Under the pieces are notes generated by a model that had not been told where the DNA came from, did no database searches, and saw only the letters and a list, made by a program, of their open reading frames with translations. From Picochlorum sp. SENEW3 (Eukaryota), in NCBI GenBank assembly GCA_034226945.1, contig CP120456.1, positions 1,054,001 through 1,118,000 of the forward strand: a DNA stretch of 64,000 bases. Reading direction: 5' to 3'. Position 1 is the stretch's first letter; every line of letters starts with the position of its first letter. The position numbers and the translations under genes are program-made. Below, in pieces: positions 30,241 through 54,329 of the stretch.

Positions 30241-30505
30241 AGAATATTTTACAAAATAAAAAACATTCTCGCGGGCCCCTTATTGACGTGAGTCTCATGA
30301 CATTTGAATCGACCTAGCGATGTTTGGATGGAAAGGGCGGATGGACCGCCCTTTCAGCTTGGGCACTAGATTGCTGTAAAGGGCTGCAGGCTGATAATGG
30401 AACAGACGATATTTGGAAAACGAGTGGGTTATTGATTCATTTATACATATCGAAGGATGTAATACAGCAATAATATGTTTCTAGTGTAGAAGGAATTGGC
30501 ATGGT

Positions 30506-30997
30506 ATGACGCTAATAGAATTACGCGAAGCATACGAAAAGCGCATTGCATGGCGAGAGTGTCAGGTATTGCAGTTGCTGGGTTGCCAAATTGATGACAG
30601 TATTGATGAACCTGTTAGTAAATTATTTAGTTTGAGCAGTAGTGAGCGATTGCAGGCAGTAATTGCGGGGCACCGTCCGTCGAAACTGCACTGCTTCAAA
30701 AAGCATCAAGAGTACTTGAGGTTTGTTGCGTCAGTGCAAGGGGAATTGAACGGAGGGTGCCAGCCAAATGGTGTATTACTGGATGCACTAGAGTATCACG
30801 GTGTTAATGTGAGAGAGGCAGTTGACAAGGCAAGCACTGAAGAAATGTTCAGGAAGTATTGCAGGAATGTAGACAAGGACATTCTGATATACTTGCAAGG
30901 CAAGTACGAGCTCAGCAGCACGTTTATATTTACCAGACTAGTTACTAGTGAATTAATGAGAAAGGTATTCGTGAAGTTACATGATGGAGGCTATTGA
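30506..30997 (+). CDS. Helitron accessory ORF, unknown function, convergent with RepHel and overlapping its stop by 7 bp
   Basis: 163 aa ATG ORF inside the element. Confidence 0.5.
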   Translation: MTLIELREAYEKRIAWRECQVLQLLGCQIDDSIDEPVSKLFSLSSSERLQAVIAGHRPSKLHCFKKHQEYLRFVASVQGELNGGCQPNGVLLDALEYHGVNVREAVDKASTEEMFRKYCRNVDKDILIYLQGKYELSSTFIFTRLVTSELMRKVFVKLHDGGY

Positions 30998-33900
30998 TTG
31001 ATGTCACATTCAGAAATGGGTGAAACTTTGAAAAGGTCTGGCGTGGGTAATTTGGTCAAGTAGATCTGCTGCAGTGTGGTTACACGGCTTAGCATGACGA
31101 ACAGCTGCCCTTCCTGAAAGATGTCTCGTATATCCAGGAGCACTTTGGTTTTGATGGTTTTCCCCTGAGCTTTGTGTGCAGTGAATGATGAGGCTGGCAT
31201 AATGGGAAACCGTCGTGTAGCATACTTGAAGCCATTACTGAGATATCTGACATCCTCCTGGGCATACAGAGTGACCGTTTGTTTGGTAGCTTTGACGTAC
31301 ACTTTGAGAGCCCAGGGAATCATGTCTTGTGAATGCAAAGGAGTAGTGACATAATCTGTTTGCTTTAACCTGTTTGGCTTATTAGGATTCTTGTATGCAA
31401 CAGACACAATACTTCCAACTGCTCCGTTGATGAGTCCCTTGTCGAAATCCTGATTTTTAGAGAATATAACTTCTGTGCCAATTGCTATCTTGCGCATGCA
31501 ATGAATCTTTGGCAGGTCATGAGTGAAGGATTCCTTTACTTTGGCTATCAAGTCATCTGAGTGGGGTGGAGTCCCAGACAGTATACGAAATGTAGGAGTA
31601 ATGTCAAATACCGGTATACCAGCTGTTTGACACTTATGGACTAGCAAGCGTTCCCCTAATTCCAAGGCATTGTCATTTTTTGCGTGGATGGAGATGGCAT
31701 CTGGGTTATCTATGAGGAATGGCAGCCACTGATGTTGAGGCAGAACTCTAGATGAAAACAAGTGTTTAATTTGCTCACGGCTGGGCGGCGTGTTATTGGA
31801 TACTAACCCTAGGATGAATTCTCCCCATTTAGGATCACCGCTAAATCTGCAGGAGGTAGACAGGTTGTGAATGTGCCAGGTATACTTGCTGAATTCGCTG
31901 TTCATAATGTTGCAGACTCTGCAAGTTTCCATAAGTTGATTGTCACTTCTTGACTTGTGCTGGCATATTGGCGGAAGTTGATTGCTGTCGCCGACAAGAA
32001 TGAAGAGCTTGTGAGCTATTTGATCTTCTTCAACCATATCACCACAGTTGAGAATTCTCTTGATGCAAATGTCCAATTTTGATGCAGTCAGCATAAAGGC
32101 TTCATCGACAATGATAACATCAGCGTCCTTGCAATATAGATAGGCTTTGTTTCGAAAATTGATATTGGTGCGTTTTTCCCCTGACCTTTCCAAAGCAACA
32201 ACACGGTCTATGGTTTGGCCGTGTATGTTGACAGCTGCAATTGCAGTGCTAGCGCACAGCACTACATTTTTCTTCATCGAGTGAAAGTATTGATGAATCT
32301 GATTGATAATAAAGCTCTTTCCACAACCTGGGCCTCCCTGAATGACATGGAAGCCTGAAGGATTCTGCTTGATATGGTCAAATGCCTGTTGCTGATCATG
32401 TGTAAGGACTGGTACATCATGGCTGTGGTGGTTTGTTGGAGATGGGTATACGGGTGTATGCGTTTCTACACCAGTTCGATTTTCGTAATGATCATAAATA
32501 AACTGACAATCTTTATCCAGGTTGAATTCTGATGCTAGCATGTTCATGTAGTGTGTTTCCAGCATGTGGCGCAGACGTATGGTTGTGTCTGCAAGCCCAA
32601 GATCGACGCACTTACCGTAATATGTGCTATCACGTCCAAGCAGTTCATTTTCCCTTCGAAATTTTTGTGTCTGCAACAAGGCGTTGAAGAAAAAACCCTC
32701 TGGATCTTCGCTTCCTGGAGCATATCTGGAGAGCCTGACAATTGCTTCTTTTTTGCGCTTGACAATTTGCTTATTATGCATGACAACGAACGTTCCTTCT
32801 TGACATGTGCTTTGTTTGCGCGGTACAACGTCATACTGCTCATAAAATTGAACAATTGTGAGAGATTCCATGTGTGGAGGTCGATCACAGTAAGCTGAAA
32901 TTTGATCAAGTGTAAAAGCGTCTTTGCCTCGTCTGGTAACCACAGATTCTGCTGAAGTTCGTTGAGAAGGAATACATGAGTTGACAAAGACTACCTGATC
33001 ACTGAATGAAATAACATCAATGCCAAGCATGTTTAGGGCAGCCTCAGAAACACTGACTGGTTTGCTATACACTACATCAGTCAGTATTCTCCTGGTGATT
33101 TCAGAACAATCTGGCACTGTCAGGGAATGCATGGCATCTGGCTCCACCATTAACGATCCAGCAGGCTCTGCCTTAGCAGTGTACTTGAGTAAGTAGTAGC
33201 TGAGATTATCATTTGTGACTCGCACAACATTTGTATGAGCATTCCACAGCAAGGCAATCATAGGAACGTAACAGACTGTGTTTCTATGTCTGTACCCTGG
33301 GCAGTATGGCAAATACCTCTTTGATTTTGGGCAAAGGACAGGTGTATGTGAATACTGTGCAGGAAATGGGAATCCATATCTACATTCACCATGCAAGCGA
33401 CATTGAGAGCTGCATGAATGCTGGTTTTTTTGCACAATAATGTTGTGCAGCATGGCAAGCACTTCGTCTGATGGCACTTTGTATTCTCCTGTCTCAGGAT
33501 CGACTTCGTACGGTATTTCCATGGTAAGCAGTTTCTCAACATCTGGTAAATCATCTGGGTGGATCCAGAGCAACACATGGGTATGCCATGCTTGTCTGCC
33601 TTGCAGTTCATATTTAATAACATGATTTGTAACTCTTCCTAAAAGCTGACACCCTCCGTCAAGACCCAAGATAAAGTGGTTGAAAAAGTTTTGAAACCTG
33701 TTATGAAACAATAGGGTTGTCTCACATGGTGCAGATTTTGCTTTCAATCCTGGGTTAATTTGCCTGAGAATGTCATCTAGCAAATCGTACTCCTTCCACC
33801 TGGTGGCCGAGCAATCATCCACTGTCAATGTCATCATCAAATGAGGAATTCCTTTCTTGGCTGCGACTGCCTCAATGTTGTGTAATTGATTCTTATACCA

Positions 33901-35523
33901 CAGAGGACTGCCTTTAATATGGTTGGAGATTTTGTATTTCTCAATTGTATCAAGGCATGTTTGGAGGACGAACTTTTTTCCTTCCTTGGCACAAGCTTTT
34001 TGTTGTCTGTCATATTCTTGTTGAATGACTACCTGCAGTAGAGAATGAAAGGCATAGAAGTAAACGCATTTTAGTACTAGGCTAATTGATTATCAACTTA
34101 CCCTGGTATTAGTGGATGAGTATTCTGTTGTTTTCATCGCTTGATACATAAGGCATATATATTCCTGAGTAAGAGAATATGGCGAAAAGAGTTGATGGCA
34201 CCTGAAAGACAAATACTTTTTGAATTGGCCTATTCCAACATTAAAGCAGGTGTTTGGGATGTGGTTGACTGTGAACTGAGGAAACAAATGTGGAAAGAGT
34301 AATTGCTCCATTGTCCCATGATCAATATTCCACGAGTCGTCGCGTAGATCTGTCGTATTTATACCGCCATGTACCGTCGTAGTAACGTTTCTTTCCTGCA
34401 ATCCCTCGCGGTCTTGAACTGACCCAACCTGTATTTGTTCATGGCTGTGGATTCCATCTGCAGTATGTGGCCGCCCACACATGACAGACAGCACTTCGTT
34501 GTCTGCAAGAATATTGCTTTGAGTGTTTGTAATATTTGCAGCCGTTGATACATCTCGAGCCTTGGATGGCTGAATAATATTGGTAAGCATGACTGAATCT
34601 GCAGGGCCTGTGTAGAGAGCCTGTCCCTGGCAATTTTTCCTTTCTAGCAAAGGCAGGTACTTGTGAAACAGTACATTGTGCCTTCTGTTTGTAAAATACA
34701 AGCTTAGAATCGAATCCGGAGGTCTCTGCTGCTGTAAACCCATGGCATGAAAAGCCTGAACATTGTCATGCCTTTGCATATGTGCCTCCTCCTCAATACT
34801 TGTGTGTTGCAATTTGTTAGCAAACAATGGCATTTCGAAGAACACATGTACCTTTGGTCGAAGCGTGCATCCCGAGGTCATTTGGTTGACAACATAAGTG
34901 ACGTCAAGCAATGAAAAGTATGACCTGTAAAACGGTTCTTCTGACAGCATAGCAAAGTACAGTGTGCTATATGGCACACAGCTATCATGGCATGCGACAG
35001 TGCCATAATTGAATGGCAATCGTGATTTCATTTCCAGCTTTTCTTTATCCTTGTTGACCTGGTAGCATGATTTACACACTTGTAGATTGCCACGTTCACT
35101 TTCAGGTGTTTCCAAGAAAAGTTTCAAGTCAACCAGTTGCAGTGCACAATTTCTTGTGGCACTGGTGTAAATCCACTTTTGCTGCACAGAGTACTGAATC
35201 CATGCATTGTAATTCTGCTTCAAGATGATTTGTAAATCCTGAGATAAGCATTTAATTCCTCGAAAGGAGTCGTTGCCTCCAAAATCAACGAAACTGCAGA
35301 CTGGGCAGCACTGAATGTCTGACACCAGAGTTTCACACGCACTACTCCACTCTGAAAGCATAGAACTATCCAACTTCATGTAGTCATAATAGGTATTGTT
35401 CCTTTCTCTAATATGCCTGACTAGGAGTTGAGGTTTTCCGACTGTAGACAGCCCTAGGTCAGAGCAAATGCTGCGGAGCTGTTCCCTGCTAAGATTGTCC
35501 CTACTTCGTTTTATACCGGGCAT
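30991..35523 (-). CDS. Helitron RepHel (N-terminal SAP, HUH-Y2 Rep, Pif1 SF1B helicase), ~1487 aa, intron at 34033..34101
   Basis: SAP-like LSREQLRSICSDLGLSTVGKPQLLVRHI; splicing GTAAGT..CTGCAG restores KGSPLWY..GIPHLMMTLT; ELQGRQAWHTHVLLW (HUH), YLLKYTAK, GGPGCGKS, IVDEAFM, GDSNQLPPI, TAHKAQGKT, GQLFVMLSRV. Confidence 0.93.
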
Positions 35524-35639
35524 ACTTAAGAATTTTTATACTGTAAGATAATTGTAATGTAATATACCTTAAACCTTCAACATAGCACACGTATGAATAA
35601 AATTGAACTGTGCACGGACTGATGCATGCACATTTTGTA

Positions 35640-35710
35640 ATATGGTTCATTTTTCTGACCATATGGTTCATTCTTTTGACCATATGGTTCATTTTTCTCA
35701 CGATATGGTC
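35640..35710. repeat. 21-bp tandem repeat (about 3 copies) in the divergent intergenic region
   Basis: ATATGGTTCATTTTTCTGACC-like units. Confidence 0.75.
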
Positions 35711-35857
35711 AGAATATTCAATGAGTCATTTTATCTTTTTAATTTGACCCTGGCAAAGTATGGATGATGGTGGAGGAAAACGGCGGCTGGTAAAAAAATG
35801 CAGATAGAAAAAAAAGTTTTAAAACGTCACAATACTTTGAGTCAACAACATTTGACT

Positions 35858-36773
35858 ATGTGGTCTGCAAACATTAATCTTGCTGAACTGGAACGCCGCA
35901 CTTTGCAGCAAGTGCAACAACGGTATGTGTTCTGCCGCCTCAATATACGTTTGTGATATATGATATTCAATACAGCACGCGCATCATACATGCGTCCTTG
36001 CAATATGTAGTGCCAAGAATGACTTTCCTGATGAGGAAACATCATTGACAGACAATCAACTGTATACACTTGTGGTATACAATGGAGTTGATCCAACAAA
36101 GATTCCATCATCCTTTACAACGGTCAGTGCACGACAACAGTATTATGAGTCAATGAAACTGGTTGCTGCAAACAGAACAGGAGTCAGAAGCCCAAATGGA
36201 AGATCAACGAAGGTTGTTTTGACCATTGGAACGTGGTGGCCATTCCTGGAATATGCGAGGAAAAGGCGTTGGTATACGGCACAGTATGCAGAAGAGGATT
36301 TCTGGTTGGCATCTGATGCTCAACCACTGTATGCGAAAATCCAAGGAGAACAAAGACTGCATCCTTCGTACAGAGAAGCCATGATTCTTGGGTACATGAT
36401 GGGTGGATTTGAAGATGTTTTCAATACTGAAAAAATACCAAATCAAGCGTTTGCTAAAACATTTTGCGACAATTTCGCTGCAAGTGTTTTCCGTCCTGAT
36501 CCTGAGCAAGATGAAGCTATTCCTCCGACTCAATTTTCTCCCAATGTGCAGCAAGCACTTGGTCAACCACAAAATGTGTCTGAAGACGAGGAAGAAGAAA
36601 GCCATGAAAATGATGATCATCACTCTGAGTCCGATGATAACAGAGACGATGTTGTGATTATCAGTGAAACTCCAGGAAATGGTATCTTCATAAAAGAAGA
36701 GCCTGTATATGAAGAAGAGTCCACTGAGCAAGTCACTCAGAAAAGGACAGCCTGTTCCTACAGTCACTCCTGA
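35858..36773 (+). CDS. Helitron accessory gene, unknown function, acidic C-terminus; intron at 35923..36010
   Basis: Exon 1 MWSANINLAELERRTLQQVQQR splices in frame through GTATGT..TGTAG to ORF 36045..36773; a frameshift near the end may have removed a basic tail (to ~36820). Confidence 0.6.
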
Positions 36774-37112
36774 GAAGAAGCAGAAGAGGAGCAGACGTGC
36801 AACTGTGAAGAAGACATGATCATGCTTTAACGCAGTAATCATGCTTATTTCTGCCAAGGTAGCAACTGTACACCAAGTGTATGTCATGCTTTCCTTTAAG
36901 AAATCCAATGTAAGTAGGAAGGAAGATCACCTACTTAATATATCTAATTAAGACCTGATAATAGATTTAAGTAGAATAATATATGTGGATCTTCATGGAT
37001 ACGTTCAGATGATAAGAGATGCTCTAGATCTCTAGGATGGACCCGTGGGAGATCCGAGGGGGTCCATCACATTCCTCCCCCCTCAGCAAAAACCAAGGGT
37101 TTTGCGACAAGA

Positions 37113-40100
37113 TTAAACGTTGTAGTAGTACTGAGGGAAAGACGGGTGACGAGACTGTGGTGGCCAGAAATTGTGAAAGACGAAGATCTTATGCCAATCG
37201 GCCTCAGTAAAACTAGTAACTGGCCTCCAGTCGTGAACCTTATCAAGCTCCTTATGCTGAAATTTGACCAAGTAGTGGGGTGTACCATACTCGTCCTCTT
37301 TCACATCCACAATTTCTTCTACAACAAGAGGCTCCAACGAGGACGTCACAGTAGGTTCTACAAAGTCCTGAGACTGAACATGTTTCTTAAGCTTGGAAAC
37401 ATGGTAGTACGCCGTTTGGTTGCTCTTCCTATGAGGAATATCCAGCTTGTACGCTGTGTCTCCGATACGATCAATAATAGAGAATGGACCTTCATACTTT
37501 GGTGCAAGGGACCCATTTTTCTGCACTTTAGCATCAGAAATCTTGACGAATACGAGATCTCCAATGTTGAAGGAAAGAGGTCTATGATGTTGATTATAAT
37601 ACTTAGCTTGCTTTGCCTGTGCCTTGCTGAGGTGATTCTTGGCGAAATCCACGAGGTACGAAATCTTGTGGTCAGTCGTCATAAGCGAAGATGAAGACGT
37701 GGGCTTGTTAAGAAAATCTGGCATGTGCCAATCCTCTCCAAAAACTAACCTGTTTGGGGAACAACCTGTGGATGCCTGCACCGAACTATTATAAGCCATC
37801 TGTAAGGTGGGTAACGCTAAATGCCAATCCTGCGATCTGTGTTCCAACAAATATGAACGAAGCATCTGTTTGATTGTGCCATTGACGTTTTCAACCTGAC
37901 CATTGGTTTGAGGATGTTCAACCGTAGCCAGCCTGTGCTCAATGCCAACAGTCTTCATGTAAGCTCTGAAAAATTGGCCTGTAAAAGCCGACCCCCTGTC
38001 GGTGATAATCACATCAGGATGCCCAAAAAGATTGAAGAAATGGTGCCGCAGTAACTCTAAGGTTTCGGGGCCACCCACATGGACGTCACAAGGGATGAAG
38101 ACAGCAAATTTAGTCAACCTGTCAACAACAACCAAAATGCCATTGGAACCCAATGAGGTTCTACGAAATGGGCCTACAAAATCCATGTGAATGATGCCAA
38201 AACGCCGATTAGGGATTTCCAGCGACTGTAACAATCCTGCAGGAGCTTTGCCGAGAGTGCTTGGAACAAGCACAGACTGGACATGCTGAGATGTAGCGAC
38301 GCAGCTGATTATACATCCCAGGCCAATAGTATTTAATTTTAAGCTTCTGATAGCATTTATCTATACCCATGTGCGCGCCCTGGTGCTCATTATTATGGTA
38401 GTAGTGAAGCAATTTACCTCGCAACATGTCTGGGACATACAAACATGATGGTGGGCCATTGTCGCGCTGAGCCAATGGCCAATGGTAGATAACACCATCA
38501 CGGACCACCAATTCTTTCGGAATAGGAAGTGTAGTTGACTTTGAATGTAAGAGAGCCTGAGCAATTGCATCCGAGGCATACGCAGCTTGTACCTGAGATA
38601 TCCAAGTGTCCCCTGCCAAGGTGAGTTGAACCGCTGCATACACAAAAGGGATAGACTCCTCTCTAAGGTGGCGCTTAAGCAATACTCGATTAATGTCTGC
38701 AGGGTGATGCTCTTGAAAGATGGCTAAGGAAGACCAAGGGCATACGGAGGGAGGGCCCTCCAAGTGGACTGCAGCAACCACCAGCTCATGATCTGGGCGC
38801 CTGCTTAAGCCGTCAGCAACAATATTTGTTTCACCTTTCTGATACTCTATTGACAGTTCTGGGCCCCATTCAAGCAATTCACACATCCACCTGACATGCC
38901 TTGATGACTGAGAAACGGCAATACTTTGCTGGAACTTGTGGACTAATGGACGATGATCAGTCCTGATCACGACCTTTTCACCAAAAATCAAAGGCTTCCA
39001 CTTGTCCAGAGCTGCCATGATGGCAAGCCATTCACGATCAAAGGTACTATAATTTCGCTGAGCTTGGTTAAGCGAAACGCTCATATAAGAGATTGGAAAT
39101 AATGCATCGGTATGGTACTGCTGTAAGACTGCCCCAACAGCGATGAGACTGGCATCCGTATTGATATAGAAAGGTTGATCTGGAATGGGCAACCTCAAGA
39201 GGGGAGGCTTGCTCAGTAACTGCTTTAACCCTTCAAACGCTGACTGATGCTGGGCGGTCCACTGAAATGTGACTTTGGAACTGGTGAGTTGATTGAGCGG
39301 AGCAGCCAACGCCGCAAAATTCGCAATGTACTGGCGATAATAATTGCACAACCCAAGAAATTGGCGGACATGCTTCGTGTTGGCAGGCACTGGCCACGCT
39401 TGGATGGCATCAAAGCTGACTTGCACTGGTTGCAATCCATGCTTGGAAAGGCGACTCCCTAAAAATTGGACTTCTTCTTGGAAAAAATGACATTTTTCAG
39501 GCGCGATGCGATAGTCCTCTTTGCTAGAGCGGCAAACAGGCGCTCCAGAATAGACTCATGCTCCTCATGAGTGCAAGTGCCGACAATGATGTCATCGAGA
39601 TACACCGCAGCATGATCTCGGAGATCATAGCGACGCAGCAAATCCGAAGTAAGGCGCTGCATAATGCTCGGTGCATTGCATAATCCAAAAGGCATGACAC
39701 GCCATTGATATAAACCCTCATGGGTAATGAATGCTGTCAGGTGGCAATGGTCAGGATTTACCAAAACCTGATGATACGCCGACTTCAGGTCGATCACACT
39801 AAATATGGATTTGCCTCCAAACTGTGCTATCAGGTCATCCGTATGAGGAATAGGAAATCTGTTAGGTATTGTGACAGCATTCAAGCATTTGAAATCAAAG
39901 ACTAACCGATCCTTACGGTTTGGTTCATGAACGATAAAAGCTGGAGAAGCCCAGGCTGATTGTGAATACTCTATAAACCCAAGCTTGAGAAGCTTGTCGA
40001 CTTCCTGTCGAATCTTTGTTCGGTCCTTGGGGCCACAACGACGCGCTTTCTGAGACGAAGGAGAAGCCCCCGGCACTAATTGTATGTCGCAATTAATAGA

Positions 40101-40613
40101 GCGCTGTGGGGGCAACCCTGACGGTGGCTCAAAAACGCATGAGTACTTCAAGATGCAAGGAGGAATGTGGCTCATGTGTGAAGAAGCCATAACTTGCCTG
40201 CCAATAGGATAGATGGAGGTGGAAAACCACTGCTCCTGATACTCAAAACGAAGTTCATGTGTACCATGGTTGATGATGGCCTGGTGATCCTCAAACCACG
40301 GCACTCCGAGAGTAACATCTGCCACTTGGGGCATGACAACGAATGCCAGGACAGCTGAGTATTCCTGAATTGCGATGCGCAACTGAATGACTTCAGACAA
40401 AGAGGCTGAATGGGCAACCCCTGACGCCAATGTGACCGACAATGGCTGACGCAAACGCTGCGTAGGTAAAGAATGTCTGGTAACCAAGGCCTGGTCGATA
40501 ACGTTGGCCGAGCACGCCGTGTCGAGCAATATGTGCACCGGAATTGTCGATGACTGGGCATCATATAGGGTGCCCACGGCGATCGGTGGAAACCCGACTG
40601 TGACGGAGGCCAA
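37113..40613 (-). pseudogene. Gypsy pol: protease, RT, RNase H, integrase, chromodomain; frameshifts near 39480 and 38270
   Basis: LLDTAC, DLKSAYHQ, MPFGLCNAP, YLDD, TDAS, TDHRPL, N..ADGLSR, HMG..CPVC, HMDFV, TDRG, GQVE, PKYEGPF; chromodomain VEEIVD..YLVKF..DW. Confidence 0.92.
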
Positions 40614-40744
40614 CTCTGCATAGAAATGTGAAGGACATCAGGAGGTTACAGAACACTACCCGAATTAAGAAAGAGAGAAAGCCAAAACCGGGATGCATGC
40701 CGATTCAATGCCGAATTGACGAGACAATAGTGGAAACTAGGGAG

Positions 40745-41100
40745 GTCATGACCCTTGTTGGACGCAGCAAGGGTGCAAGCAGTTGCTTTCATCAACCTCG
40801 TTTGTGATTCTTGGGGTGACCACTGGTGGACGCAGCAGTGGTGCGATAGACGCTTCACCAGCCAAGGCAATTTCATGCTTATAACCACTGGAGGACACAA
40901 CAGTGGGGCGAGAAGTAGCTCTGTATGATTCTTGGGGTGACCACTGATGGACACAGCAGTGGTGCGATGAACGCTTCACCAACCAAGGCAATATGGTTCT
41001 TGGGATGACCACTGATGGACACAGCAGCGGGCGACGGACGCATTCATCAACCAAGGCAATATCATGGGGGTAGATTACCAAACGGTGGACACACCATTGA
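40745..41100. repeat. Degenerate ~55-65 bp tandem repeats between gag and pol
   Basis: Recurring core GACCACTG.TGGAC.CAGCAGTG and flanking CCAAGGCAAT, about 5-6 units. Confidence 0.75.
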
Positions 41101-41177
41101 TACGAGCAATTGGAACTGCTCAACCCGAAAATATCTAAAGAGGGGACGTTACCCAGAAAAGACCGAAAATGTAAGAA

Positions 41178-41972
41178 TTACTCACCGTCATATTTGAACG
41201 AAGGGGCTTGTAGCCCTGCCTCTGGCTGCATAGTCTGAGCTGCATGCGTAACTGGAGGCCGCCTCCAGCGCGGGTCTTGTCTGCGCTGACGATCCGACCC
41301 GTTATTGCGCTTGAACTGAGGAGGCGCATAGGAATGCTTCAACTGCTGCACCTGTGTGCGAATATCCTGCGTCGAGGTAATGGACTCAATATCAAGCTTC
41401 TTACGCAGCGGATTCGGCAAACTCTTGGCCATAGCTAAGGCAATAAACGCGTGGCTGTTGGCATGAAACCATGACAAAAAGGCTGGGTTATTGGCAAGAG
41501 CGTGCATGTCATCGAGAGTGCTAAGCACTCGCTCAACAGCAGCCGTATTAGGCAAAACAGGCAAGTTCCAAAAGCATAACTGAGGCAACGTTTCCGCCAC
41601 TGGAGGAAACAGTTTCTGCAAGGTTGCGGTAAAGTCGTCTAGACTCATCTGTAGGTACACGTCGACGGGTTTCAATTCCAAACGCATACAGAATTGCTGA
41701 ATAATTTCGTCATCAGCCAATTGAAAACGATTTCGCATAACCTTAACCTGGGTCTCGACAAAAGCTTCCACCGAGGAAAAACTCTCCAAGGAAGGCATAA
41801 CCTGGTAATAGCCTCCACCCAGTTGAGAAACCATAGATGACCCCGCCGCATTCACACTGGCCGATCCGGATCCCATTAAGGCCTGTGGAGTAGATTGAGG
41901 ATCCGAGGGCATCTCCGGGCGAGCTCGCTTAGTGGACGCGCGAGTGCTGCGACGAGGCGGCATAGCTAGCAC
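41178..41972 (-). CDS. Gypsy gag-like ORF
   Basis: First ORF after the PBS, with a helical core and R/Q-rich C-terminus. Confidence 0.7.
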   Translation of the reverse strand: MLAMPPRRSTRASTKRARPEMPSDPQSTPQALMGSGSASVNAAGSSMVSQLGGGYYQVMPSLESFSSVEAFVETQVKVMRNRFQLADDEIIQQFCMRLELKPVDVYLQMSLDDFTATLQKLFPPVAETLPQLCFWNLPVLPNTAAVERVLSTLDDMHALANNPAFLSWFHANSHAFIALAMAKSLPNPLRKKLDIESITSTQDIRTQVQQLKHSYAPPQFKRNNGSDRQRRQDPRWRRPPVTHAAQTMQPEAGLQAPSFKYDGE

Positions 41973-42092
41973 AATTTCTGTCGGGGAAATTCGATTCTGT
42001 CAGCTCCACCAATGTAAGTAGGAAGGAAGATCACCTACTTAATATATCTAATTAAGACCTGATTAATCTATAATAATAACTCCTAGATGGAA

Positions 42093-42620
42093 CAGCTCAA
42101 AATTTTAAATTTCGTTAGGTAAATCGCATTAAAACGAATTTAGATTAAAATGAGCACATATTCTGGGGAGTAGCCAACGAAAATTGAATAAAAGTTCCAA
42201 TTTTTTTGGCAATTCCCCTGCTTGACAGTCTTTGCCTATCCAGCAACCCTTTTGACCGATGATATTGATCGACTCATTGATCTTCTTCTTTTCCCATCAA
42301 ATGTCCCTCTTGACAGGCAAATCGACTGCGACTTGCGAGTCATAAACTGCTGACTGGGGTTGCCCCTGAGCATGCTACACATCCATACCCTGCCACTCAA
42401 TGATCCAGAGGATTCACAGAGCTCAAATCTCTTAGATCCTGTATGAAATGCCCTTGTTAGGTCAACCAGAACAGAGGCTGACGAAAATTGAATAAAAGAA
42501 ACAAGGCATTTGAAGCTGACCAACGAAATTTGATTAATATGAAGGGGCAAAATTTCCTCGCGCTTCGCACGACGAAATTCAATATTTTAATCAATAAAAC
42601 GAAATTAAAAAATTTTCCTG
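42093..42620. mobile_element. MITE-like insertion in the 5' LTR
   Basis: Absent from the other LTR; inverted ends AAAATTTTAAATTTCGTT / AACGAAATTAAAAATTTTCCTG-TA; repeated ACGAAAATTGAATAAAAG. Confidence 0.6.
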
Positions 42621-42832
42621 TATGTTGATCTTCATGGATACATTCAGATGATAAGAGATGCTCTAGATCTCTAGGATGGACCCGTGGGAGATCCGAGGGG
42701 GTCCATCACATCCAAGGCTTCCTTAAAAAGACGATATGAGAAGATCAAGGAGACAAGAGTGTCTCCCTGCATGCGATGTTGATATTATTTACAACACAGT
42801 GCATATTTTACGTAGCGGTAACAAAAATATCT

Positions 42833-43234: not shown

Positions 43235-43486
43235 TCAGTATTACTGCAACCGCATAACAGCCATATATCATGTCATATACAACAGTATTATGATATGGTT
43301 ACCTTTGCAATGCCAGTGTTGCGTATCGTATGACATTTAAATGGGTGCATGCCGGCATGGCGCAATCCCATGGCCATGGCCAAGCCAATTTGCAACTTTT
43401 GCATTGCAATTGCTATTTACCTGTGACTGTCCTATCCGTATCCAAAGCATACTTTATTTCATCATTTCGTTATCAAAAAAGCATAC

Positions 43487-44553
43487 ATGAGTGGCAGTCT
43501 TTCGTCAAGATCTTCTGCCAGTAGTGATAACCAAGGTGACGACATGAACTCTAGTGGCAAACAAATACACATTTATGTCGACAAACAACTGCGTCAGTCA
43601 TTTAGTGTGTGTAAAACACTGTCACAAGATAAGCAAGAAGTACAAATAACTGCTACTTTGTTACAAGTGTTGTTCGACGACACTCGAGACGGTGACATTA
43701 TTCTGAGTTCGGTTCGGATTACGACGACACCTGAGGCAGAGCCTGTAGCAACAGATGAATTACAGAAATATGCTACAAATAAGGTTTTATTCACAGTTAC
43801 AGTATCAAAGTTGCTTGCTATCAATACGGAATCTGAGATCACTCTCTGGTTCATGACACCAGCTGGGCAGGCCAAGGCTGCTCAGGACGCTCTTCATGCT
43901 GCTGCGAAGCGTATGAAAACCAGTCATGATGACCAGGATGCATTACCACTAGATCAACAATTTGTTCATGAACTTGTGACTGACATTGCTCAAACATTCA
44001 TGTCTAAAGATGACATTCATTCAAAGATATGTGTTCAAATGTACCCATGTCTCTTGACACGTATCCTTGGTCATAATCGCGCGTATCATGATATTGCTAT
44101 AAAGTACGTTGCATTATATACTCTGAATACATCTTCAAAACATTCAATAGACTGCACAAGCAACTGCCTATTGCAGAGCAATCACATCATACAGGTCTAA
44201 TTTCAGAAGGCGTGTGATGCATAAACAAAGCAAGACCACAACACCCTCAACTACTGGATCTGGTAGTAGGTACGTCACTGCTAAGTGCATCATGTATATT
44301 GGTCAGGAACATATACGTGTATTCATAATCTTGCAGTAAGGATACTAAGCAACACGACTTCATGGACTGTTCATTGCTGGCAGACAATCTCCTGAACTTG
44401 GTATCAGACCTTCAAAGATTAAGTGACAAGCGGTCGTCTTGCATTATCAAATCTATTGCAAGACAGGTCTATAGTATGCTGTATGTAAATAGGGATAATG
44501 CAACACCAGATTTACCAAGTCATTTGAAGTGCACACTCATGATTGATATGTAA
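43487..44553 (+). CDS. Helitron accessory gene, 3 exons (43487-44103, 44177-44269, 44337-44553), unknown function
   Basis: Two GTACGT..TTGCAG introns, both phase 2, join ORF 43487 to ORF 44362..44553 without stops. Confidence 0.7.
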
Positions 44554-45506
44554 ACCCTTGACCTGCGTCTCACAATGTAAGTTAATCTTATTTAAAAGGG
44601 ACTTCTTATATTTGCATTCGTATATGCACTAATACAACGCAACAGCGTGTTATTCTGCCAACAAAATGATGCTGTCCACCATCATCATACCAATAGCAAG
44701 CCTTAAAAGCAGGTGATCTATCTATGGTGCCCACCAAACCAGCTCAAATCCAATTCTTCTGTAATTTACATACATAGTAAGTTAATTAAAATCCAGTACT
44801 GTGCTATAGATACCAACTACAGGTGCGCACGGACAATCGACCGTTAATGACGCCCAGATTTGGCCACGTCCTGTAGCCCTGGGCGGTATTTATGGGCAGA
44901 GAGATATACCATCTTATGTATCATATGTATTTGTATTTCTATAGCGCTTCAACGGCGGTAATACGGCACCACAAAAATTCGGGCATCTGAATTTACGCGA
45001 ATTTTTCGCTAAATCGACGCTCGCAAACGCAGCGTGGCCGGCTTCGTACCCCTCGCAGTCTCAATAACCTTATATTACAATACTAGTCATTTTTATGTAC
45101 ACAGTGTAATTTATCCTGCTGCAGGGAAGCGGGAATCGCGTTTGTGGTTACAGCTATATAAAGTTTTTCCCCCAAAGTACCACTTGCTGCGGCATTCCCG
45201 CTTATAAGCGCTTATCCCGCTAGCGGGATCACCGCCGTATTTGAGGGTGGCGCCCAATGGCCAAAACCCCAAAACTCGGCGGCGTTCCCGCTTATAAGCC
45301 GGATCACCGCCGTGTTTCCAAACCCCATTCTGAAAATATGGCGGCATTCCCGCTTAGACTAATTTGAATTTTGGGTGAGCGTCGGAGAGTTTATGCTTTC
45401 AAATTCATATGATGGATAGTAAGCAATAGATATTGTTTAATTGTAAGGGCTATATAAAGGCAATCAATCGCCAGAGTCGCACTGGTGGCAACGCTTCACG
45501 GGACTC

Positions 45507-46997
45507 ATGGGCGACCAGGACTCTCCACCACTGTGGACTCAGGAGCAGGGCAGAGTGCTTCAAGGTCTAGATATCATACCCTTTGATCCACAGAAATGTG
45601 AAAAGGACTTTTGGGACCTGCGCCGCGGGACTGATGCCTTCGACCAGGCTCTCGGAGCACGGGTTGAGGCAGGGAAGCTGTATGAGATATCTGGGGAGCG
45701 ATATTACACGTCCTTGAGGAGACAGGGACGACTGCGTCTTCCAATTCAGACGTTTGACGATGCCAATATCATCTACTTGAAAAGAATATGCTATGCGTTT
45801 GGCGGCGAAGACATACCGCGCGACGAAGACCTGCGCGAATATCTGGTCTTCAATAACGGGTTCTGGCCGCTGCGTACCAGGCCATATATTGTCGCGTGCC
45901 CATCTGCTTTATCGCTGCCTTCCAGTGTGATTTCGTTTCCTTGTATATTGAATATATATGAGGTTGATGAGCCCGCAACCATGCCGAAGTCAGTGCCCAA
46001 GTATGCCAAGGACTTGATGCAATTCCACCTGTTAGTGATGAAGCAAGATATGCCGATCTTGTTGTTTGACGATGACGTTGCAGACCTTGTTGGGATGTGT
46101 ATTTTCGTCCTCAAAGACCCTGACATGAATACACTTGATCGAGGCGTACCTGTCTGCGAGTTCTTCCTTGTTTCTTTGAGCAAAGAAGAAGAGCAGGTTT
46201 TGACTCACACTGGCATCCAAGTTCTTTCAGACCATTATATGCAGCATACGATTCCGAGGGATCGATGCAGTATTGAAAAAGAATATTTAAATCCTCAAAA
46301 TTTGAGTGAGTATCCCTGGCAGAGAAGACCTACGCGTGAGGGTCGTCCTTCGTATGAATGTGGGCAAAGTGTCATTAGGAGGAAAGATGGTGTTTGGGGT
46401 ATGATTCTACAAGAACGGGAACATATCGACGCAGAGACGGGAGATCTCCACCGAGAATTCGGGATATCATGCGACAAAGACATTTTGAAAGAAGGAAAGC
46501 TGAAGCCTGGGCACAGATTGAAATATTACCCCACATCCGAAATAATGGGAGTGTTTGCATGCCCGCCAGTGCGTTTTCCTATTCATCCAACAAAAATTGG
46601 GCAGCGAGTGGTGGTGTACGGTGCTGGTAATTCCAACAAACTATCCATTCCAGACGGGTCTTGTGGTGTCGTGAATGCTGTCATCGAGGATGGTCCGAGA
46701 ACCTCCTTGATGTGCACCGTGGCTGTGCAAGAAGAATATCCCAGCATGGAGACAACACAGATTGACGTGAAATTAAAGTATACGAGATTTTTGTTGCTCG
46801 ACAACGAACAGTATGTATCTCATCAACCTTCAGATTATGATAATGCGAACATTCCGCGCAGGATCATTTACAAATTCGAAAATCTGACCTTTTGCGAGAT
46901 CAAAAAGCTGTTTGAGACAGCGGAGAAGAGCAGACTGGTTCACAAATGTAGCAAAGGTACGATCTCACGAACAACTTCAATTCGATGCCCTTGCTGA
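45507..46997 (+). CDS. MULE-internal ORF, unknown function (possibly an N-terminal exon of the transposase)
   Basis: 496 aa ATG ORF inside the TIRs, just upstream of the transposase. Confidence 0.6.
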   Translation: MGDQDSPPLWTQEQGRVLQGLDIIPFDPQKCEKDFWDLRRGTDAFDQALGARVEAGKLYEISGERYYTSLRRQGRLRLPIQTFDDANIIYLKRICYAFGGEDIPRDEDLREYLVFNNGFWPLRTRPYIVACPSALSLPSSVISFPCILNIYEVDEPATMPKSVPKYAKDLMQFHLLVMKQDMPILLFDDDVADLVGMCIFVLKDPDMNTLDRGVPVCEFFLVSLSKEEEQVLTHTGIQVLSDHYMQHTIPRDRCSIEKEYLNPQNLSEYPWQRRPTREGRPSYECGQSVIRRKDGVWGMILQEREHIDAETGDLHREFGISCDKDILKEGKLKPGHRLKYYPTSEIMGVFACPPVRFPIHPTKIGQRVVVYGAGNSNKLSIPDGSCGVVNAVIEDGPRTSLMCTVAVQEEYPSMETTQIDVKLKYTRFLLLDNEQYVSHQPSDYDNANIPRRIIYKFENLTFCEIKKLFETAEKSRLVHKCSKGTISRTTSIRCPC

Positions 46998-47045
46998 TCC
47001 ATCATCACCACTTTCGCCATCCAGGTAACGAGAGTTTGGTGCCAG

Positions 47046-49420
47046 GTGACGATACCCTTGACATCTTGGAGCGGAAGAGGAAGGAAGCGCGGGCATCAGG
47101 ACTATGTGGCATGGTTGGCTTCTTGTGTCCATTCCGACCCGTTCTTTGGCAAGACCTGCGAGCGTCGAGCCAATGAACGCTCCGAAACATATGTGGCATT
47201 GCAAAAGCCGACGGAGACCATTGCTGTACTGACTTGCTCAAGGGGACAGCAGAAAGCAGTGCCGGCAACAAGCAAGCAAGGAAAGAAAGTCAACTGCGAA
47301 TACAGAACCCGCCTCACAAAGTTTCGATACGAGGATGCCATCTACGCTGAGGCACTTCAGACCCACACAAATCACGAACCGGGTTCTGGAGATTACCACG
47401 AGCCTGAGACACCTCGACTGAAGAGGGCATTGGATGACCTGTACGACCTTGGATTCAAACCTGCAAAGGCTGTCAACGTTATCAAGTATCAGACAGGTGC
47501 CACCCGGCATGATCTCACGGTTGAGGAACGACATCTCTTGAATAAGACGATGGCAATTAGAGTCAAAAAAGCATACAACAAGCGACAGGCCTCCGGGAAC
47601 GACCTGGATGCTTGCGAGGCTCTGTACAATCAACACCGCGAACACTTTCTATACTTTGAGCGAGGCGACGATGTGCAGATCGCGATTTGCAGCCCAGAGC
47701 AAAGAAAGGTGATGAAAGCCTGCCATACAATGGTGTTCGCTGATGCTGTGCATTGCCTGAATCGAAAAGGTGATGTGACATTGGCTCTCCTGGTGCGAGA
47801 TCCATATGGCATGGGCTTCCCAGTGGCCTACTGCATATGCTCGGGGGGCGAGGATTCCACCAAATGGAAAAAATTCATCAGAGCCGTTGTAGATGCATGT
47901 GATGTACAGATCGATGACATCACCTTCATGATTGACAAATCCACATGCTGCATCTCTGCTTTGGACCAGCTCAACTGCTTCTGGGTCCTGTGTGCTTTCC
48001 ATTTCATGCAGAGCATCGGGCGCAAAATGAAAAGCCACGGCAGTGGCGTGTCTGGACGCAGTGATCGCGACAAATCCAACCGAAACACAATCTTCAGATA
48101 TGTCAACAGCCTCAGGCTCGTCAAGGACGAGGGTGCCTTTGATTCTGTGGCGTATGAATTCATGACCTTCCTGGAGAATGAAAACCTGGCCGAGATGAAG
48201 GAATATTTCATCAAAAATTGGATGACAATCAGCGATCGGTGGTCTCAATATGGAAGGAAACACATTGCCTTCTTGAAATCAAACACCAACAATCTGATTG
48301 AGCGGCTCTTCAGGACTGTCCAAGAAGAGTTCCTTGACAGGGAGAGACTGGGTCGCAGAGATAGCCTCATCCTAAAATTCCTCGACGAAGTAACACCACG
48401 ATACCTTGATCGACTGCAGAAGCGATTACAAGGGGCCGAAAAGGCCAATGCGCGAGTGAACCAAAACAAGCATTTGACAGGTGTCGACACGTGTGGCAGA
48501 ACCATGCAGCCCTATTGTGCCACTGGCCAGGGGTCCCTCAGCGACTCGTGCCTCATCAAATTCAATGTGGATAATCAGATGTTCTACTGCTGTACCGGAG
48601 ACCTCAGCTGCACTTGTGATGACAACGACGACGACATTTGTATGCATGTCGAAGCTGCCATGAAAAGTACCCCATCACCTACGAGATGGTGAGAAAGGTG
48701 GCGTCTGTCGTGAAAAGCCGCCAACACGAGTATGTCCAGAAGATGGCGACACCAGCTCCGTTTCATGGTGCAGAAGACCATCATGTGGAATTGTCCGATG
48801 TCGAGATTGATGAGGACAACACGGTGTATCAATGCTTGCCGGTGTGCTTTTACCACCTGGGACCAAAACCACGCAGAAAGTACTTTGTCAACATGTACTA
48901 CAAAACGTGCACGTGTCATTGCTTTTCCTTCTTCGGCACATGTCCACATGTCATAGCGTTAGGCGCTACGGATGAAGACGATATGGATCCTGCGGAGAAA
49001 CTCCAGAAATCTGTCCAGATCAGGAACGACAATCATGTCAACGCGGAGTGGGAACGAGCCTTAGTTCAGGCCTTTCCCGCACCAAGCCATGGCTCAAGCT
49101 GCGACATCTTGACGCTTGGAAGACGGCAAATCACGGACCCTAGGATGCTGACCAAAATACAGTTCAACAACGACCAGAGAGTCGCATCCTCGATCCTCGA
49201 CGAATTGCCCCGACATCTTGATGGCCGGTTCATGGGCTCCATCAGACATTCATGCAGGGCATCCGACAATTGCAGGAGATTGGCATCAACGAGTGTCGGA
49301 ACCAGAATACCAATCCAGCCCCTGCATTCAATGCCAATATGGCCTACATCCCTCCTCAACCAAGCTGGCACAGGAACCCCAACCCCAGCAATTCTGTGGC
49401 GCAATACGAGGACATGGTGA
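47046..49420 (+). pseudogene. MULE transposase with WRKY/FLYWCH-like finger, DDE core and two SWIM fingers; frameshift near 48665
   Basis: C..C..HTNH, FADAVH, GFPVAY, FMIDKS, LCAFH, NTNNLIERLF, CTC..CMH, CTC..CPH. Confidence 0.85.
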
Positions 49421-49958
49421 TTGAAGAATAATAACTCTACAACGAAGAATGTAAAAACGTCTACTGATCCAGATCGCACACAGAACTAACAGCCAACCGA
49501 CTCACCTGGAAGTGCGACCCTGACAACGAGAGCATTGCGCTGCAAATAATGCAGCAATAGGTTACTTGTTGCACATATATTTATAATATATCCCTGATAT
49601 AGTGTTGGAAGGCAAACACGGCATCTCAGCGCTTCTTCTGACTTTGACGGTTGGGCTCGGATGGAGCAGTCCAGAACGTGCCACAAGCATATTTCGACGC
49701 TTGGATGGCAATTTTATATATTCTTATATATAGTGTATTGATTTGGTACACATGATATAAAGGTTATGGTGCTTGTGGATGGCCAACGGGCTTCATGACG
49801 GTTGGTGATTGTCTAAGCGGGAATGCCGCCATATTTTCAGAATGGGGTTTGGAAACACGGCGGTGATCCGGCTTATAAGCGGGAACGCCGCCGAGTTTTG
49901 GGGTTTTGGCCATTGGGCGCCACCCTCAAATACGGCGGTGATCCCGCTTATATATATA

Positions 49959-51036
49959 CAGTACCGTAGTGTCCGCAATTTTCGGAAGGAATTTGGAAAA
50001 CTGAAAATGGCCTAAATCCGAAAATCTTCGGAGTGCAAAACCACGAAACCAGTGATATACGGTGGATTTAAATATCAATTAATGTATAATTATGACATTC
50101 CCGAAGCGAAAATAGGATCAAATAGCGGTAGCGGGAGATATGGTCGGATTATTGTCTGGAGCCAACCTCTGGCCACACCTGGTCCTGCTGCAGCTGCTGA
50201 TGGCTCTACTTCTCATCGAAACACGGTTAATCTCTTTCCCGCCGATATCGTTGGCCTAATATCATCCTTATAACATTACCAGTCGTGCCTAAAGTGATAA
50301 TCGTCTGCAAAAACGTGGAAAGAGGCCCATACTCCCAGGACCACCCTGAGTGATCACCCCTGACTGGCCTCATTCGCGTGGCCCTGATGCTCACAAGCGC
50401 TCATGTCGCCATCTTATGTCTTCTATATGCATTAGATTTGACGTTCGCTGCCCAAGAGCGACATACCTCGCCTGTAGAGAGCCTGCTGTCTCTGGCAAGT
50501 CAACCAGTTTGGCAAAAGAGGTTTTCTGGCACTTATCTGCGAAATTTTCACACGATATCGTATTCTCGGCACTCTAAGAAGTTCTTTTATGGTCCTGGGT
50601 GGGTTTATCGGTGACAGAGGCCCTCCACTGAGGCGATGTCTCGGGCAACAGGGCAACCAACCCAACGACCCAACCCAAAATCGTCGACGTAAGTGGCCCT
50701 TTTTCTTCTTGGAATAGCAATATAATATTGAATTAGTGATATTTCAGGGGGCGAGGGAATTGAAACAGCACCCATTGTCCATCAAAGTCGCCACGAAGTG
50801 GTGTCGCCACGAGTCGCTCATTCGAGCGTCGTTGTTGATTTCTGAGAGTTTCAAAGGGCGGTTTCGAGCGGGAGAGGTACCACTGGAATCAGTAGAATTC
50901 AAGCTATTTTTCAAGCCTTATTTGACAGAATATCTCGCACTTTTGATCAAAGTATCGGGCTAAATCTCATATTTTCGGAAGGATTTCCACTTTTTGCAAG
51001 TCTCATTTCCGAAACATTACGGACACTACGGTACTG
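49959..51036. mobile_element. Non-autonomous Tc1/mariner(pogo)-type element inserted in the MULE right TIR
   Basis: 17-bp TIR CAGTACCGTAGTGTCCG / CGGACACTACGGTACTG within TA runs. Confidence 0.8.
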
Positions 51037-51459
51037 TATATATATAAGCGGGATCACCGCCGTATTTGAGGGTGGCGCCCAATGGCCAAAACCCCAAAAC
51101 TCGGCGGCGTTCCCGCTTATAAGCCGGATCACCGCCGTGTTTCCAAACCCCATTCTGAAAATATGGCGGCATTCCCGCTTAGACAATCACCAACCGTCAT
51201 GAAGCCCGTTGGCCATCCACAAGCACCATAACCTTTATATCATGTGTACCAAATCAATACACTATATATAAGAATATATAAAATTGCCATCCAAGCGTCG
51301 AAATATGCTTGTGGCACGTTCTGGACTGCTCCATCCGAGCCCAACCGTCAAAGTCAGAAGAAGCGCTGGTTTCGTGGTTTTGCACTCCGAAGATTTTCGG
51401 ATTTAGGCCATTTTCAGTTTTCCAAATTCCTTCCGAAAATTGCGGACACTACGGTACTG
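51037..51459 (-). repeat. Two-part inverted duplication of 49627..49958 and 49959..50052
   Basis: Reverse-complement identity; the parts join at a 3-bp CTG microhomology (51366-51368). Confidence 0.85.
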
Positions 51460-51547
51460 TATATATAAGCGGGAATGCCGCAGCACATGGCACTTACGGT
51501 TTTTCCCCCCTATAGGCCCGTAAAAAAATAAAAAAATAAAAAATGCT

Positions 51548-51810
51548 GATGCAATTCAGCAGCAGTCCGTGATCGGACACGCTGACCTGGAAAACATATT
51601 AAATATTATGAAAACTGTGATGCCCCATGGCATATACGACGGATCGAGCACGCAAGAATGGCAGGATCGGCTTGGGATTCATGACTATGCAAAAGTGTTT
51701 CATGCCGTGCCTACTTTGCATGTCAAGCACGGGATACCAGCTCCTCTATACCATCTGATTCTCTTAGGCATAACGAAAAACTTTATAAAATATTTGTGGG
51801 ATGGCCACGG
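51548..51810 (+). repeat. Fragment of the CACTA transposase (inverted copy of ~4146-4408)
   Basis: Encodes IGHADLENILNIMKT...LWDGHG, nearly identical to 3031..4593. Confidence 0.9.
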
Positions 51811-54109: not shown

Positions 54110-54329
54110 CATGCTCATAGCAAGAGACACTTGTCCAGAGTTGTGAATCCCATCTGATCCTGCCACTCGTTCAGGGCTGATCCGTCAGGCATTCCATTCG
54201 ATACAACAATTGTTTTGTCGAAAAATCTGTTGGTCTGTCGTTACGAGACCTTTGAGACATGCTGCCAGGAGAAAGTACAACCTCTGTAGCAGTCCCTCTC
54301 AAGCACACATCTGGACCTTGTCTGTTGCT

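Follow-up and report, generated by a model that had tools for sequence, protein, structure and literature searches.

A 9.1-kb Helitron-like rolling-circle transposon with a stand-alone GIY-YIG nuclease gene in the green alga Picochlorum sp. SENEW3

Background

Helitron-like elements (HLEs) are rolling-circle transposons that encode a Rep-helicase transposase (RepHel) and are told apart by their termini and by Rep motif 2. Canonical Helitrons (HLE1) begin with 5'-TC and end with CTRR-3', carry a hairpin about 11 bp from the 3' end, insert between A and T and read RGLPHxH in motif 2, the diagnostic residue of which is L in Helitrons and S in Helentrons (PMC4067079). Helitron2 elements possess a 5' hairpin and asymmetric terminal inverted repeats (TIRs) of 8-15 bp, the 3' copy of which precedes the 3' hairpin at a distance of 20-30 bp from the end (PMC3627910), and Replitrons encode a Y1 Rep without fused helicase (PMC10288648). 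Helitron2/HLE2 elements insert within T(T/C). In this work we have analyzed a stretch of 64,000 nucleotides from Picochlorum sp. SENEW3 (contig CP120456.1 of assembly GCA_034226945.1, positions 1,054,001 to 1,118,000 of the forward strand; referred to as the window, within which all positions are given). Its segment 30263-51521, read on the minus strand, is a genuine 9.1-kb Helitron-like rolling-circle transposon with a GIY-YIG nuclease gene and two or three unassigned genes, designated element A.

Accessory genes are familiar companions of HLEs. RPA, OTU, apurinic/apyrimidinic (AP) endonuclease and SET genes have been published (PMC11417382, PMC4067079), and HELIANO lists 20 domains stably carried by HLEs (PMC11417382). 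Proto-Helentron-Pi of Phytophthora infestans, an element of about 14 kb with ends 5'-TT...CTAG-3', A/T insertion and the Helentron Rep signature, encodes a Rep/Helicase together with a SET gene and two hypothetical open reading frames (ORFs) (Thomas et al. 2014, PMC4067079). In Sphagnum magellanicum, the autonomous copies of the HLE2 family HelenSM92 carry a GIY-YIG domain; copies of this family measure about 16-19 kb and have short TIRs and TT sites (PMC11417382). Helitron2 of Chlamydomonas reinhardtii has non-canonical termini and cargo, Fanzor in some members (Bao and Jurka 2013, PMC3627910). Both multi-gene HLEs and a GIY-YIG-bearing family are already published, and an earlier, sequence-only reading of this locus, which held that Helitron captures are normally fragmentary host exons, overlooked the published accessory genes, the 20 recurrent domains and the GIY-YIG of HelenSM92.

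Helentrons transpose by rolling circle with a second nuclease of their own, Exo_endo_phos, fused to the C-terminus of RepHel; they often carry extra ORFs (OTU, RPA), and display T-rich or TT targets, a 3' stem-loop, subterminal inverted repeats of 12-15 bp and the motif RGSPHxH. In Helentrons the fused AP endonuclease is most often proposed to open the target or to prime second-strand synthesis. Penelope-like retroelements use a GIY-YIG endonuclease, fused to reverse transcriptase, where sister groups use an AP endonuclease. What an accessory nuclease does in HLEs is a standing question in the field.

In the one Trebouxiophyceae genome sampled by HELIANO no HLE was recorded (PMC11417382). The SENEW3 genome paper reports 4.99% transposable elements (TEs), 0.35% DNA transposons and repeats concentrated in few regions, and the word 'Helitron' occurs 0 times in its available text (PMC11092101); a literature search on Picochlorum and Helitron gave nothing relevant among the matches listed. 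Element A adds HLEs to the Trebouxiophyceae.

Results and discussion

Termini common to three copies delimit element A

When the window was compared with itself, the last 95 nt of element A were found to be 95% identical to 54015-54109 (inverted) and 90% identical to 59122-59194 (direct). Counterparts of the 3' end at 30263 are located at 54109 and 59125, and this end is present in all three copies in the window (A, B and C, Table 1). The 5' end at 51521 has its counterpart at 51807 and is present in both copies that reach it. After removal of a nested Mutator-like element (MULE) and one copy of its target-site duplication (TSD), the first 440 nt of A (44746-45173 joined to 51510-51521) align without gaps to 51807-52246, inverted, at 89% identity. 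In element orientation the ends read 5'-ACGGGCCTATAGG ... GGGGCCCGCGAGAATG(T)-3'. Judged by this recurrence, the termini are real transposon ends, beyond chance, and the boundaries first proposed from sequence alone hold. Lack of co-occurrence of the termini had been named beforehand as an outcome that would refute the sequence-only reading; the two do co-occur around another mobile copy, copy B.

Copy B shares with A only the terminal 440 and 95 nt (B 1-440 at 89%, B 2209-2303 at 95%) and contains none of the genes of element A. At this copy, the only one with informative flanks, no TSD was found: C stands on the 5' side, with a 4-nt microhomology (ACGG), and T on the 3' side, as in 3/3 copies. 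Element A itself lies between T and T in a T-run, a low-complexity context uninformative for a TSD. A hairpin with a stem of 9-10 bp is located at 30332-30354, 69 nt from the 3' end, in the centroid structure of both A and B; it is deleted in copy C, whose 5' end was not found in the window. The termini are thereby those of an HLE, being fixed, common to non-autonomous copies and without TSD as judged on copy B, with a hairpin near the 3' end that lies further out than usual.

RepHel unites Rep and helicase in one protein

The RepHel gene is predicted to consist of two exons, and its intron (GTAAGT..CAG) contains two in-frame stops. Pfam recognized Helitron_like_N (E=2.2e-12) and PIF1 (E=6.4e-18) in the product, and a PDB search matched Helraiser and PIF1 helicases. 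The WHTH (HUH), YLLKY (two-tyrosine) and GGPGCGKS (Walker A) motifs are intact, and the combination that characterizes HLEs, a Rep HUH, two tyrosines and a PIF1-like superfamily 1 (SF1) helicase, is found in this single protein. By its motifs RepHel is a Helitron-type Y2 RepHel. The intact SAP-Rep-helicase described earlier is borne out for Rep and helicase; for SAP, PF02037 gave a weak N-terminal match (exon 1 ORF, residues 14-34) that scores 15.2 bits and is below the cut-off of 23.9 (E=0.017).

RepHel has its best match in Picochlorum sp. SENEW3, a hypothetical protein (00000837) that is 96% identical over 843 amino acids (aa), gap-free with 34 substitutions. Beyond SENEW3 the relatives P0002 and P0003 are 53% and 26% identical. 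P0002 starts exactly where RepHel exon 2 starts, which suggests that the intron position is conserved. Clustering at 90% gathered 22 members for RepHel and 12 for the GIY-YIG protein. A profile scan with the RepHel alignment over prokaryote genome contigs returned no relative.

A compact unit of five predicted genes with two nested insertions

The Ty3/Gypsy element is bounded by a 5-bp TSD, TCCAA, at 36904-36908 and 42711-42715, and the MULE by GTTTTTCCC[CC] at 45163-45173 and 51499-51509. Both TSDs were thus found as first described, and excision of the two insertions leaves a unit of 9,116 bp, in keeping with the approximately 9 kb expected; exons make up 7,076 nt (78%) of this unit, which had been described as nearly all coding. 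Neither insertion breaks an ORF of element A: the Gypsy site is the 248-nt gap separating the 3' ends of orphan 3 and GIY-YIG, and the MULE insertion point lies 12-22 nt from the 5' terminus.

The predicted gene order is orphan 1 (+), RepHel (-), orphan 3 (+), GIY-YIG (-) and orphan 5 (+). Orphan 1 and RepHel are convergent, with stop codons overlapping by about 7 nt. RepHel and orphan 3 diverge from 334 nt and GIY-YIG and orphan 5 from 252 nt, so the layout of two divergent pairs stands; among the five genes, orphan 1 is a putative gene known from its ORF, and exons 2-3 of orphan 5 are predicted.

Table 1 Positions of element A, its predicted genes, nested insertions and related copies in the window
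Feature	Position	Strand	Remarks
3' terminal region (RTS) of element A	30263-30505	-	shared 95-nt end, hairpin
Orphan 1	30506-30997	+	163-aa ORF; ORF alone
RepHel transposase	35523-30991	-	1,487 aa; exon 1 35523-34102, intron 34101-34033 (69 nt), exon 2 34032-30991
Three tandem 21-bp repeats (ATATGGTTCATTTTTCTGACC)	35640-35709	.	in the RepHel/orphan 3 divergent region of 334 nt
Orphan 3	35858-36773	+	exon 1 35858-35922, 88-nt intron 35923-36010 (GTATGT..TAG), exon 2 36011-36773
Nested Ty3/Gypsy LTR retrotransposon	36909-42710	-	Pfam RVP (protease), RVT_1, RNase H, rve (integrase)
Stand-alone GIY-YIG nuclease gene	43234-42833	-	133 aa; PF01541 44.3 bits against a cut-off of 22.6
Orphan 5	43487-44553	+	exon 1 43487-44103; possible exons 2-3 44207-44269 and 44337-44553 (298 aa)
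5' terminal region (LTS) of element A, most of	44746-45173	-	matches start of copy B; final 12 nt beyond the MULE
Nested MULE-like DNA transposon	45174-51498	+	imperfect TIRs, 9-11-bp TSD, weak ZSWIM RNaseH-like Pfam match
5' terminus of element A	51510-51521	-	reads 5'-ACGGGCCTATAG on the minus strand; same start at 51807 in copy B
Copy B, non-autonomous element of 2,303 bp	51807-54109	+	same two termini as A; head-to-head with A across a 285-nt spacer
Copy C, partial non-autonomous copy	59125-60529	-	94% identical to B 52688-54109

Placement among Helitron-like elements

Assignment to canonical Helitrons (HLE1) was rejected by the ends of A, which read ACGGGCC...GAGAATG(T), with the distant hairpin and T on either flank, and also by Rep motif 2, which reads YELQGRQAWHTH and whose QAW is found in P0002 too; the diagnostic residue is A, within RQAWHTH. 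Helitron2/HLE2 termini do not fit either: in place of their 8-15-bp TIRs, A has just a 6-nt match, CGGGCC/GGCCCG, the 3' copy of which follows the hairpin and is situated 8 nt from the end (9 if the terminal T is counted). A stable 5' hairpin was not found, the 5' 130 nt folding no better than shuffles (z=+0.69). Against a Helentron, RepHel ends 20 aa past the helicase and has no Exo_endo_phos match, and motif 2 has A, not S. Against a Replitron, it has the Y2 motif and a PIF1 helicase. On these comparisons the termini and Rep motif of element A fit neither canonical Helitron nor Helitron2/Helentron signatures, and a distinct Helitron-like lineage is plausible. The earlier proposal of a distinct Helitron2-like lineage is supported in so far as the termini and Rep motif 2 are not those of canonical Helitrons; the Helitron2-like part of it is not established.

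Element A resembles each of its closest counterparts in some respects. Like proto-Helentron-Pi it has no fused endonuclease and bears several separate ORFs on both strands beside the Rep/Helicase, but it measures 9.1 kb, carries GIY-YIG and has ends ACGG...AATG(T) in a T-run. With HelenSM92, compared by description only, it shares a green-lineage host and a GIY-YIG domain, and differs in size, TIRs and sites. It is Helentron-like in rolling-circle mode, in having its own second nuclease and extra ORFs, in its T-rich target and in the 3' stem-loop, whereas its GIY-YIG gene is separate, the subterminal inverted repeats of 12-15 bp are absent and motif 2 is RQAWHTH. It has in common with Helitron2 of C. 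reinhardtii a green-algal host, non-canonical termini and cargo. The parallel with Penelope-like elements extends to the type of nuclease; these are retroelements, and the mechanism is unrelated.

The GIY-YIG gene as a probable long-term resident

The GIY-YIG protein scores above the gathering cut-off of PF01541 and also matches PHROGs homing-endonuclease families and TIGR01453. Aligned to the catalytic domain of I-TevI it conserves Y26, Y37, R48, H52 and E96, with N112 kept in the homologue P0014, and the conserved Y, Y, R, H, E and N of the superfamily, which we take to be the catalytic residues, are all accounted for. The protein is the catalytic domain alone, 133 aa compared with 143 aa in P0014, and both end at the same place. 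A free-standing GIY-YIG homing endonuclease with a C-terminal DNA-binding domain was rejected, as the profiles matched are 215-284 positions long and the matches stop after the first 86-92.

The homologues are 95% (12 members), 94% (SENEW3 locus 00000921), 88% and 46% (P0014) identical. All four candidates retrieved were close relatives or the protein from a contig of 9,050 nt, and no host paralogue was found among them. For P0014 (GIY-YIG, 46%) there is a single Logan sequence, on one contig with a length of 9,050 nt, and the same holds for P0002 (RepHel, 53%); this length is close to that of the 9,116-bp unit. Since each is on a 9,050-nt contig, GIY-YIG has probably been inherited together with RepHel since the split from the 53% relative, which makes it a likely long-term resident and agrees with the earlier view of the nuclease as belonging to the element. 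A profile scan with the GIY-YIG alignment over prokaryote contigs gave only three bacterial loci of 29-32% identity; these are generic relatives of the domain and so uninformative on origin.

Conservation of orphans 3 and 5

On the evidence of their homologues, orphans 3 and 5 each represent a conserved protein family, for which Pfam, PDB and the host provide no annotation. Five homologues of orphan 3, P0015-P0019, are 86, 42, 33, 30 and 28% identical. They have a common conserved core and a variable acidic linker, followed in 4/5 by a basic tail. In element A the protein comprises a helical domain of about 160 aa and the acidic linker, and the N-terminal helix of its two remotest relatives has a counterpart in exon 1 of the spliced model, which lends modest support to the predicted intron. 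Relative to P0015 a frameshift near 36750 puts the last ~20 codons off frame, and the basic C-terminal tail is lost. Orphan 5 has seven homologous clusters of 59-79% identity, and its frame is open in all seven.

Two forms of orphan 5 have to be considered. In 6/7 homologues the ORF calls cross donor 1 and stop about 25 codons further on, with in-frame indels, so that the three-exon model has a real alternative in one exon that ends at 44200 and encodes about 235 aa. Exon 3 is a 72-codon open frame behind a GTACGT..TTGCAG intron.

Structure prediction, suggested earlier for the orphans, yielded AlphaFold2 models for two of them. For orphan 3, one of five models had a mean predicted local distance difference test score (pLDDT) of 62.5, with values of about 80-90 over most of residues 11-160 and a dip at 51-70. 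The orphan 3 profile matched nothing in PDB or Pfam and gave no usable match in Atlas. Overall, the searches of orphans 1, 3 and 5 against Pfam, NCBIfam, PHROGs and PDB, together with the fold search for orphan 3, returned no explanatory match.

Proposed mode of transposition

We consider it probable, short of certain, that element A, resident in a Picochlorum-type green alga, belongs to a divergent lineage of Helitron-like elements and represents an autonomous rolling-circle transposon equipped with accessory genes. Its domain content, its termini and its non-autonomous partner are established by the sequence, and the steps below are inferred. RepHel would nick the 5' terminus, and its helicase would peel off one strand as far as the 3' signal, made up of the hairpin and the 69 conserved nt, after which the single strand would re-insert at T-rich sites. 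By analogy with the fused AP endonuclease of Helentrons, the GIY-YIG protein may act in trans as a nickase that opens the target or primes second-strand synthesis. Orphan 3 could be a nuclear helper, possibly handling chromatin or DNA, because it has a helical domain, an acidic linker and, in its relatives, a basic tail resembling a nuclear localization signal. Copy A itself is probably no longer mobile, because the MULE splits its 5' terminus, the Gypsy element lies inside it and the orphan 3 tail is lost.

A wider interpretation, which we regard as rather doubtful, is that such elements form an undescribed deep clade of HLEs in the green lineage, in which a co-inherited stand-alone GIY-YIG nickase replaces the fused AP endonuclease and is accompanied by lineage-specific nuclear proteins. 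In this interpretation the unit size of about 9 kb, kept between relatives whose RepHel proteins are only 53% identical, leaves room for a circular, replicon-like stage. A third deep HLE clade has been reported in Paramecium in 2026 (PMC13085455); separate as it is, it offers a possible parallel. A small separate nuclease gene, a complete transposase and a natural 2.3-kb non-autonomous partner would together make a convenient system, in which the need of rolling-circle transposition for a second nuclease could be addressed genetically. The locus also gives a genomic context to two new conserved protein families, orphans 3 and 5.

Evidence against and alternative explanations

Several observations weigh against an autonomous element with a working set of accessory genes. 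The introns of its genes and the functions of its accessory proteins are predictions. That P0002 and P0014 lie on one and the same contig is deduced only from the equal 9,050 nt and the source, and the SENEW3 locus tags of the RepHel match (00000837) and the GIY-YIG match (00000921) are not adjacent. Orphan 1 had no match in Pfam, PHROGs, NCBIfam, PDB, Atlas, phages or plasmids, and ranked 43/128, beside spurious ORFs, in a codon-usage test. Foldseek of the orphan 3 model against PDB and BFVD gave no match at E <= 0.001, and the orphan 5 model (pLDDT 43.5) is unusable. None of the seven orphan 5 matches is on a contig of 9,050 nt; they all fall at 59-79% identity, whereas GIY-YIG has no matches between 46% and 88%, so that orphan 5 either evolves much faster or also occurs without GIY-YIG. 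The RepHel protein search covered lengths of 567-1,806 aa, and RepHel fragments on the short contigs of orphan 5 could therefore not show up.

An appreciable possibility, though below an even chance, is that the gene set is over-annotated: orphan 1 and exons 2-3 of orphan 5 would be chance ORFs, and besides RepHel and GIY-YIG only orphans 3 and 5, with their main exons, would count as genes. Orphan 1 rests on a 163-codon ORF, and its Atlas recognition score of 1936 is under the 2300 reached by 91/100 proteins of known families. Its codon rank points the same way, as does the read-through of donor 1 in the orphan 5 homologues. Codon-usage scoring was nevertheless discarded as a judge of orphan 1, since bona fide RepHel exons scored as low as spurious ORFs. 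On the other side, the orphan 1 ORF fills an otherwise empty 0.7 kb from the RepHel stop to the 3' terminus, where by a rough estimate the chance of a 170-codon open frame is about 0.02, and the 72-codon frame of orphan 5 exon 3 follows a clean intron.

It is unlikely, in our estimation, that the extra ORFs are mere passengers, captured by or hitch-hiking on an HLE without a role in transposition, for example the remnant of an invading homing endonuclease and orphans captured from the host or from TEs. The nearest families of the GIY-YIG protein are indeed homing and group I intron endonucleases, the orphans have no assigned function, and the identity distribution of orphan 5 is unlike that of GIY-YIG; moreover, HELIANO terms the Sphagnum GIY-YIG 'captured' and notes that accessory sequences are not always in autonomous elements (PMC11417382). 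Against this, the divergence of GIY-YIG (46%) tracks that of RepHel (53%), probably on one contig; the genes are whole, have their own promoter-side intergenic regions and sit in a 78%-coding unit; and no host paralogue appeared among the matches, the GIY-YIG search giving close relatives or the 9,050-nt contig protein in 4/4 cases.

CRESS-type viruses (circular, Rep-encoding, with single-stranded DNA) and rolling-circle plasmids are marked by a superfamily 3 (SF3) helicase or none, a capsid gene and an episomal form. An integrated plasmid- or virus-like replicon, a circle of about 9 kb that integrates occasionally, is very improbable: the relative that assembles as a stand-alone 9,050-nt contig of near-equal size, the compact bidirectional layout and the three 21-bp tandem repeats by the RepHel promoter, which could be iteron-like, are what speaks for it, but copy A lies in a chromosome, has Helitron-like ends and later received two TE insertions, its termini are also those used by the non-autonomous copies B and C, the helicase is of the PIF1 SF1 type found in Helitrons and not SF3, no capsid-like fold or family was found in the proteins tested (the orphan 3 model had no BFVD match), and a 9-kb repeat is expected to form its own short-read contig anyway. 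The plasmid- or virus-like element offered as an option by the sequence-only reading thus has no support other than compactness and one contig of matching size.

Further observations on the element and its surroundings

The 5' ends of A and B face each other across 285 nt, and, the MULE being ignored, form a 440-nt inverted repeat, 89% complementary, which could fold as a long hairpin if transcribed through. What at first resembles a 428-nt inverted repeat around the MULE is really due to a separate element, copy B. The three copies of the family lie within 30 kb. Most of the A-B spacer is a 264-nt fragment (51547-51810) that matches a portion of a KDZ-element ORF (4145-4408) with 97% identity, and it adjoins the 5' end of B through the microhomology ACGG. 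The KDZ copy at 4145-4408 was considered as a paralogous empty site and rejected, as it matches only the A-B fragment (265 nt) and not the flanks of A or B. The sequence after the 3' end of B is not KDZ, so copy B is not a simple insertion into the KDZ element. At the other side, a 179-codon ORF (29740-30279, minus strand) with a Cys/His-rich start and without Pfam match abuts the 3' end of element A; it looks like the tail of another retroelement ORF, beside or into which element A inserted.

Within element A, the 21-bp tandem repeats contain the palindrome ACCATATGGT. The exact 15-mer of the repeats has no site elsewhere in the window, and the motif is absent from the other divergent promoter. 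The switch of frame in orphan 3 relative to P0015 falls within 36694-36816, and copy A is without the basic tail.

The long terminal repeats (LTRs) of the Gypsy element differ greatly in length, with 163 bp at 36909-37071 and 698 bp at 42013-42710; only the right LTR contains a segment of about 535 bp, and the common parts are 98-100% identical. Its pol region is spread across three overlapping frames. The MULE insertion is composite: 45222-45359 has two copies of 100% identity, an inverted one at 49811-49948 and a direct one at 51047-51184, and 49627-50052 is inverted at 51013-51467 with 99-100% identity. This pattern suggests either two elements or an internal palindromic duplication inside one pair of TSDs.

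The window contains no N, has 41-53% G+C and is rich in transposons. Pfam scans of its long ORFs identified KDZ transposases, a long interspersed nuclear element (LINE), Gypsy, MULE-like sequences and one RepHel, around a few ordinary genes (GT90, GT8, TPT), whereas the window gave no match in Rfam and tRNA scans. The KDZ transposase ORFs number at least four (3-896, 8939-12136, 14761-15990 and 16598-17158), the LINE, with AP endonuclease and reverse transcriptase, is located at 24249-27141, and 7134-8554 forms a further repeat with 54989-57111. Positions 1-29000 and 54000-63000 constitute a dense TE island in a genome reported to hold about 5% TEs, and, speculatively, this island could belong to a repeat-rich or centromere-type region.

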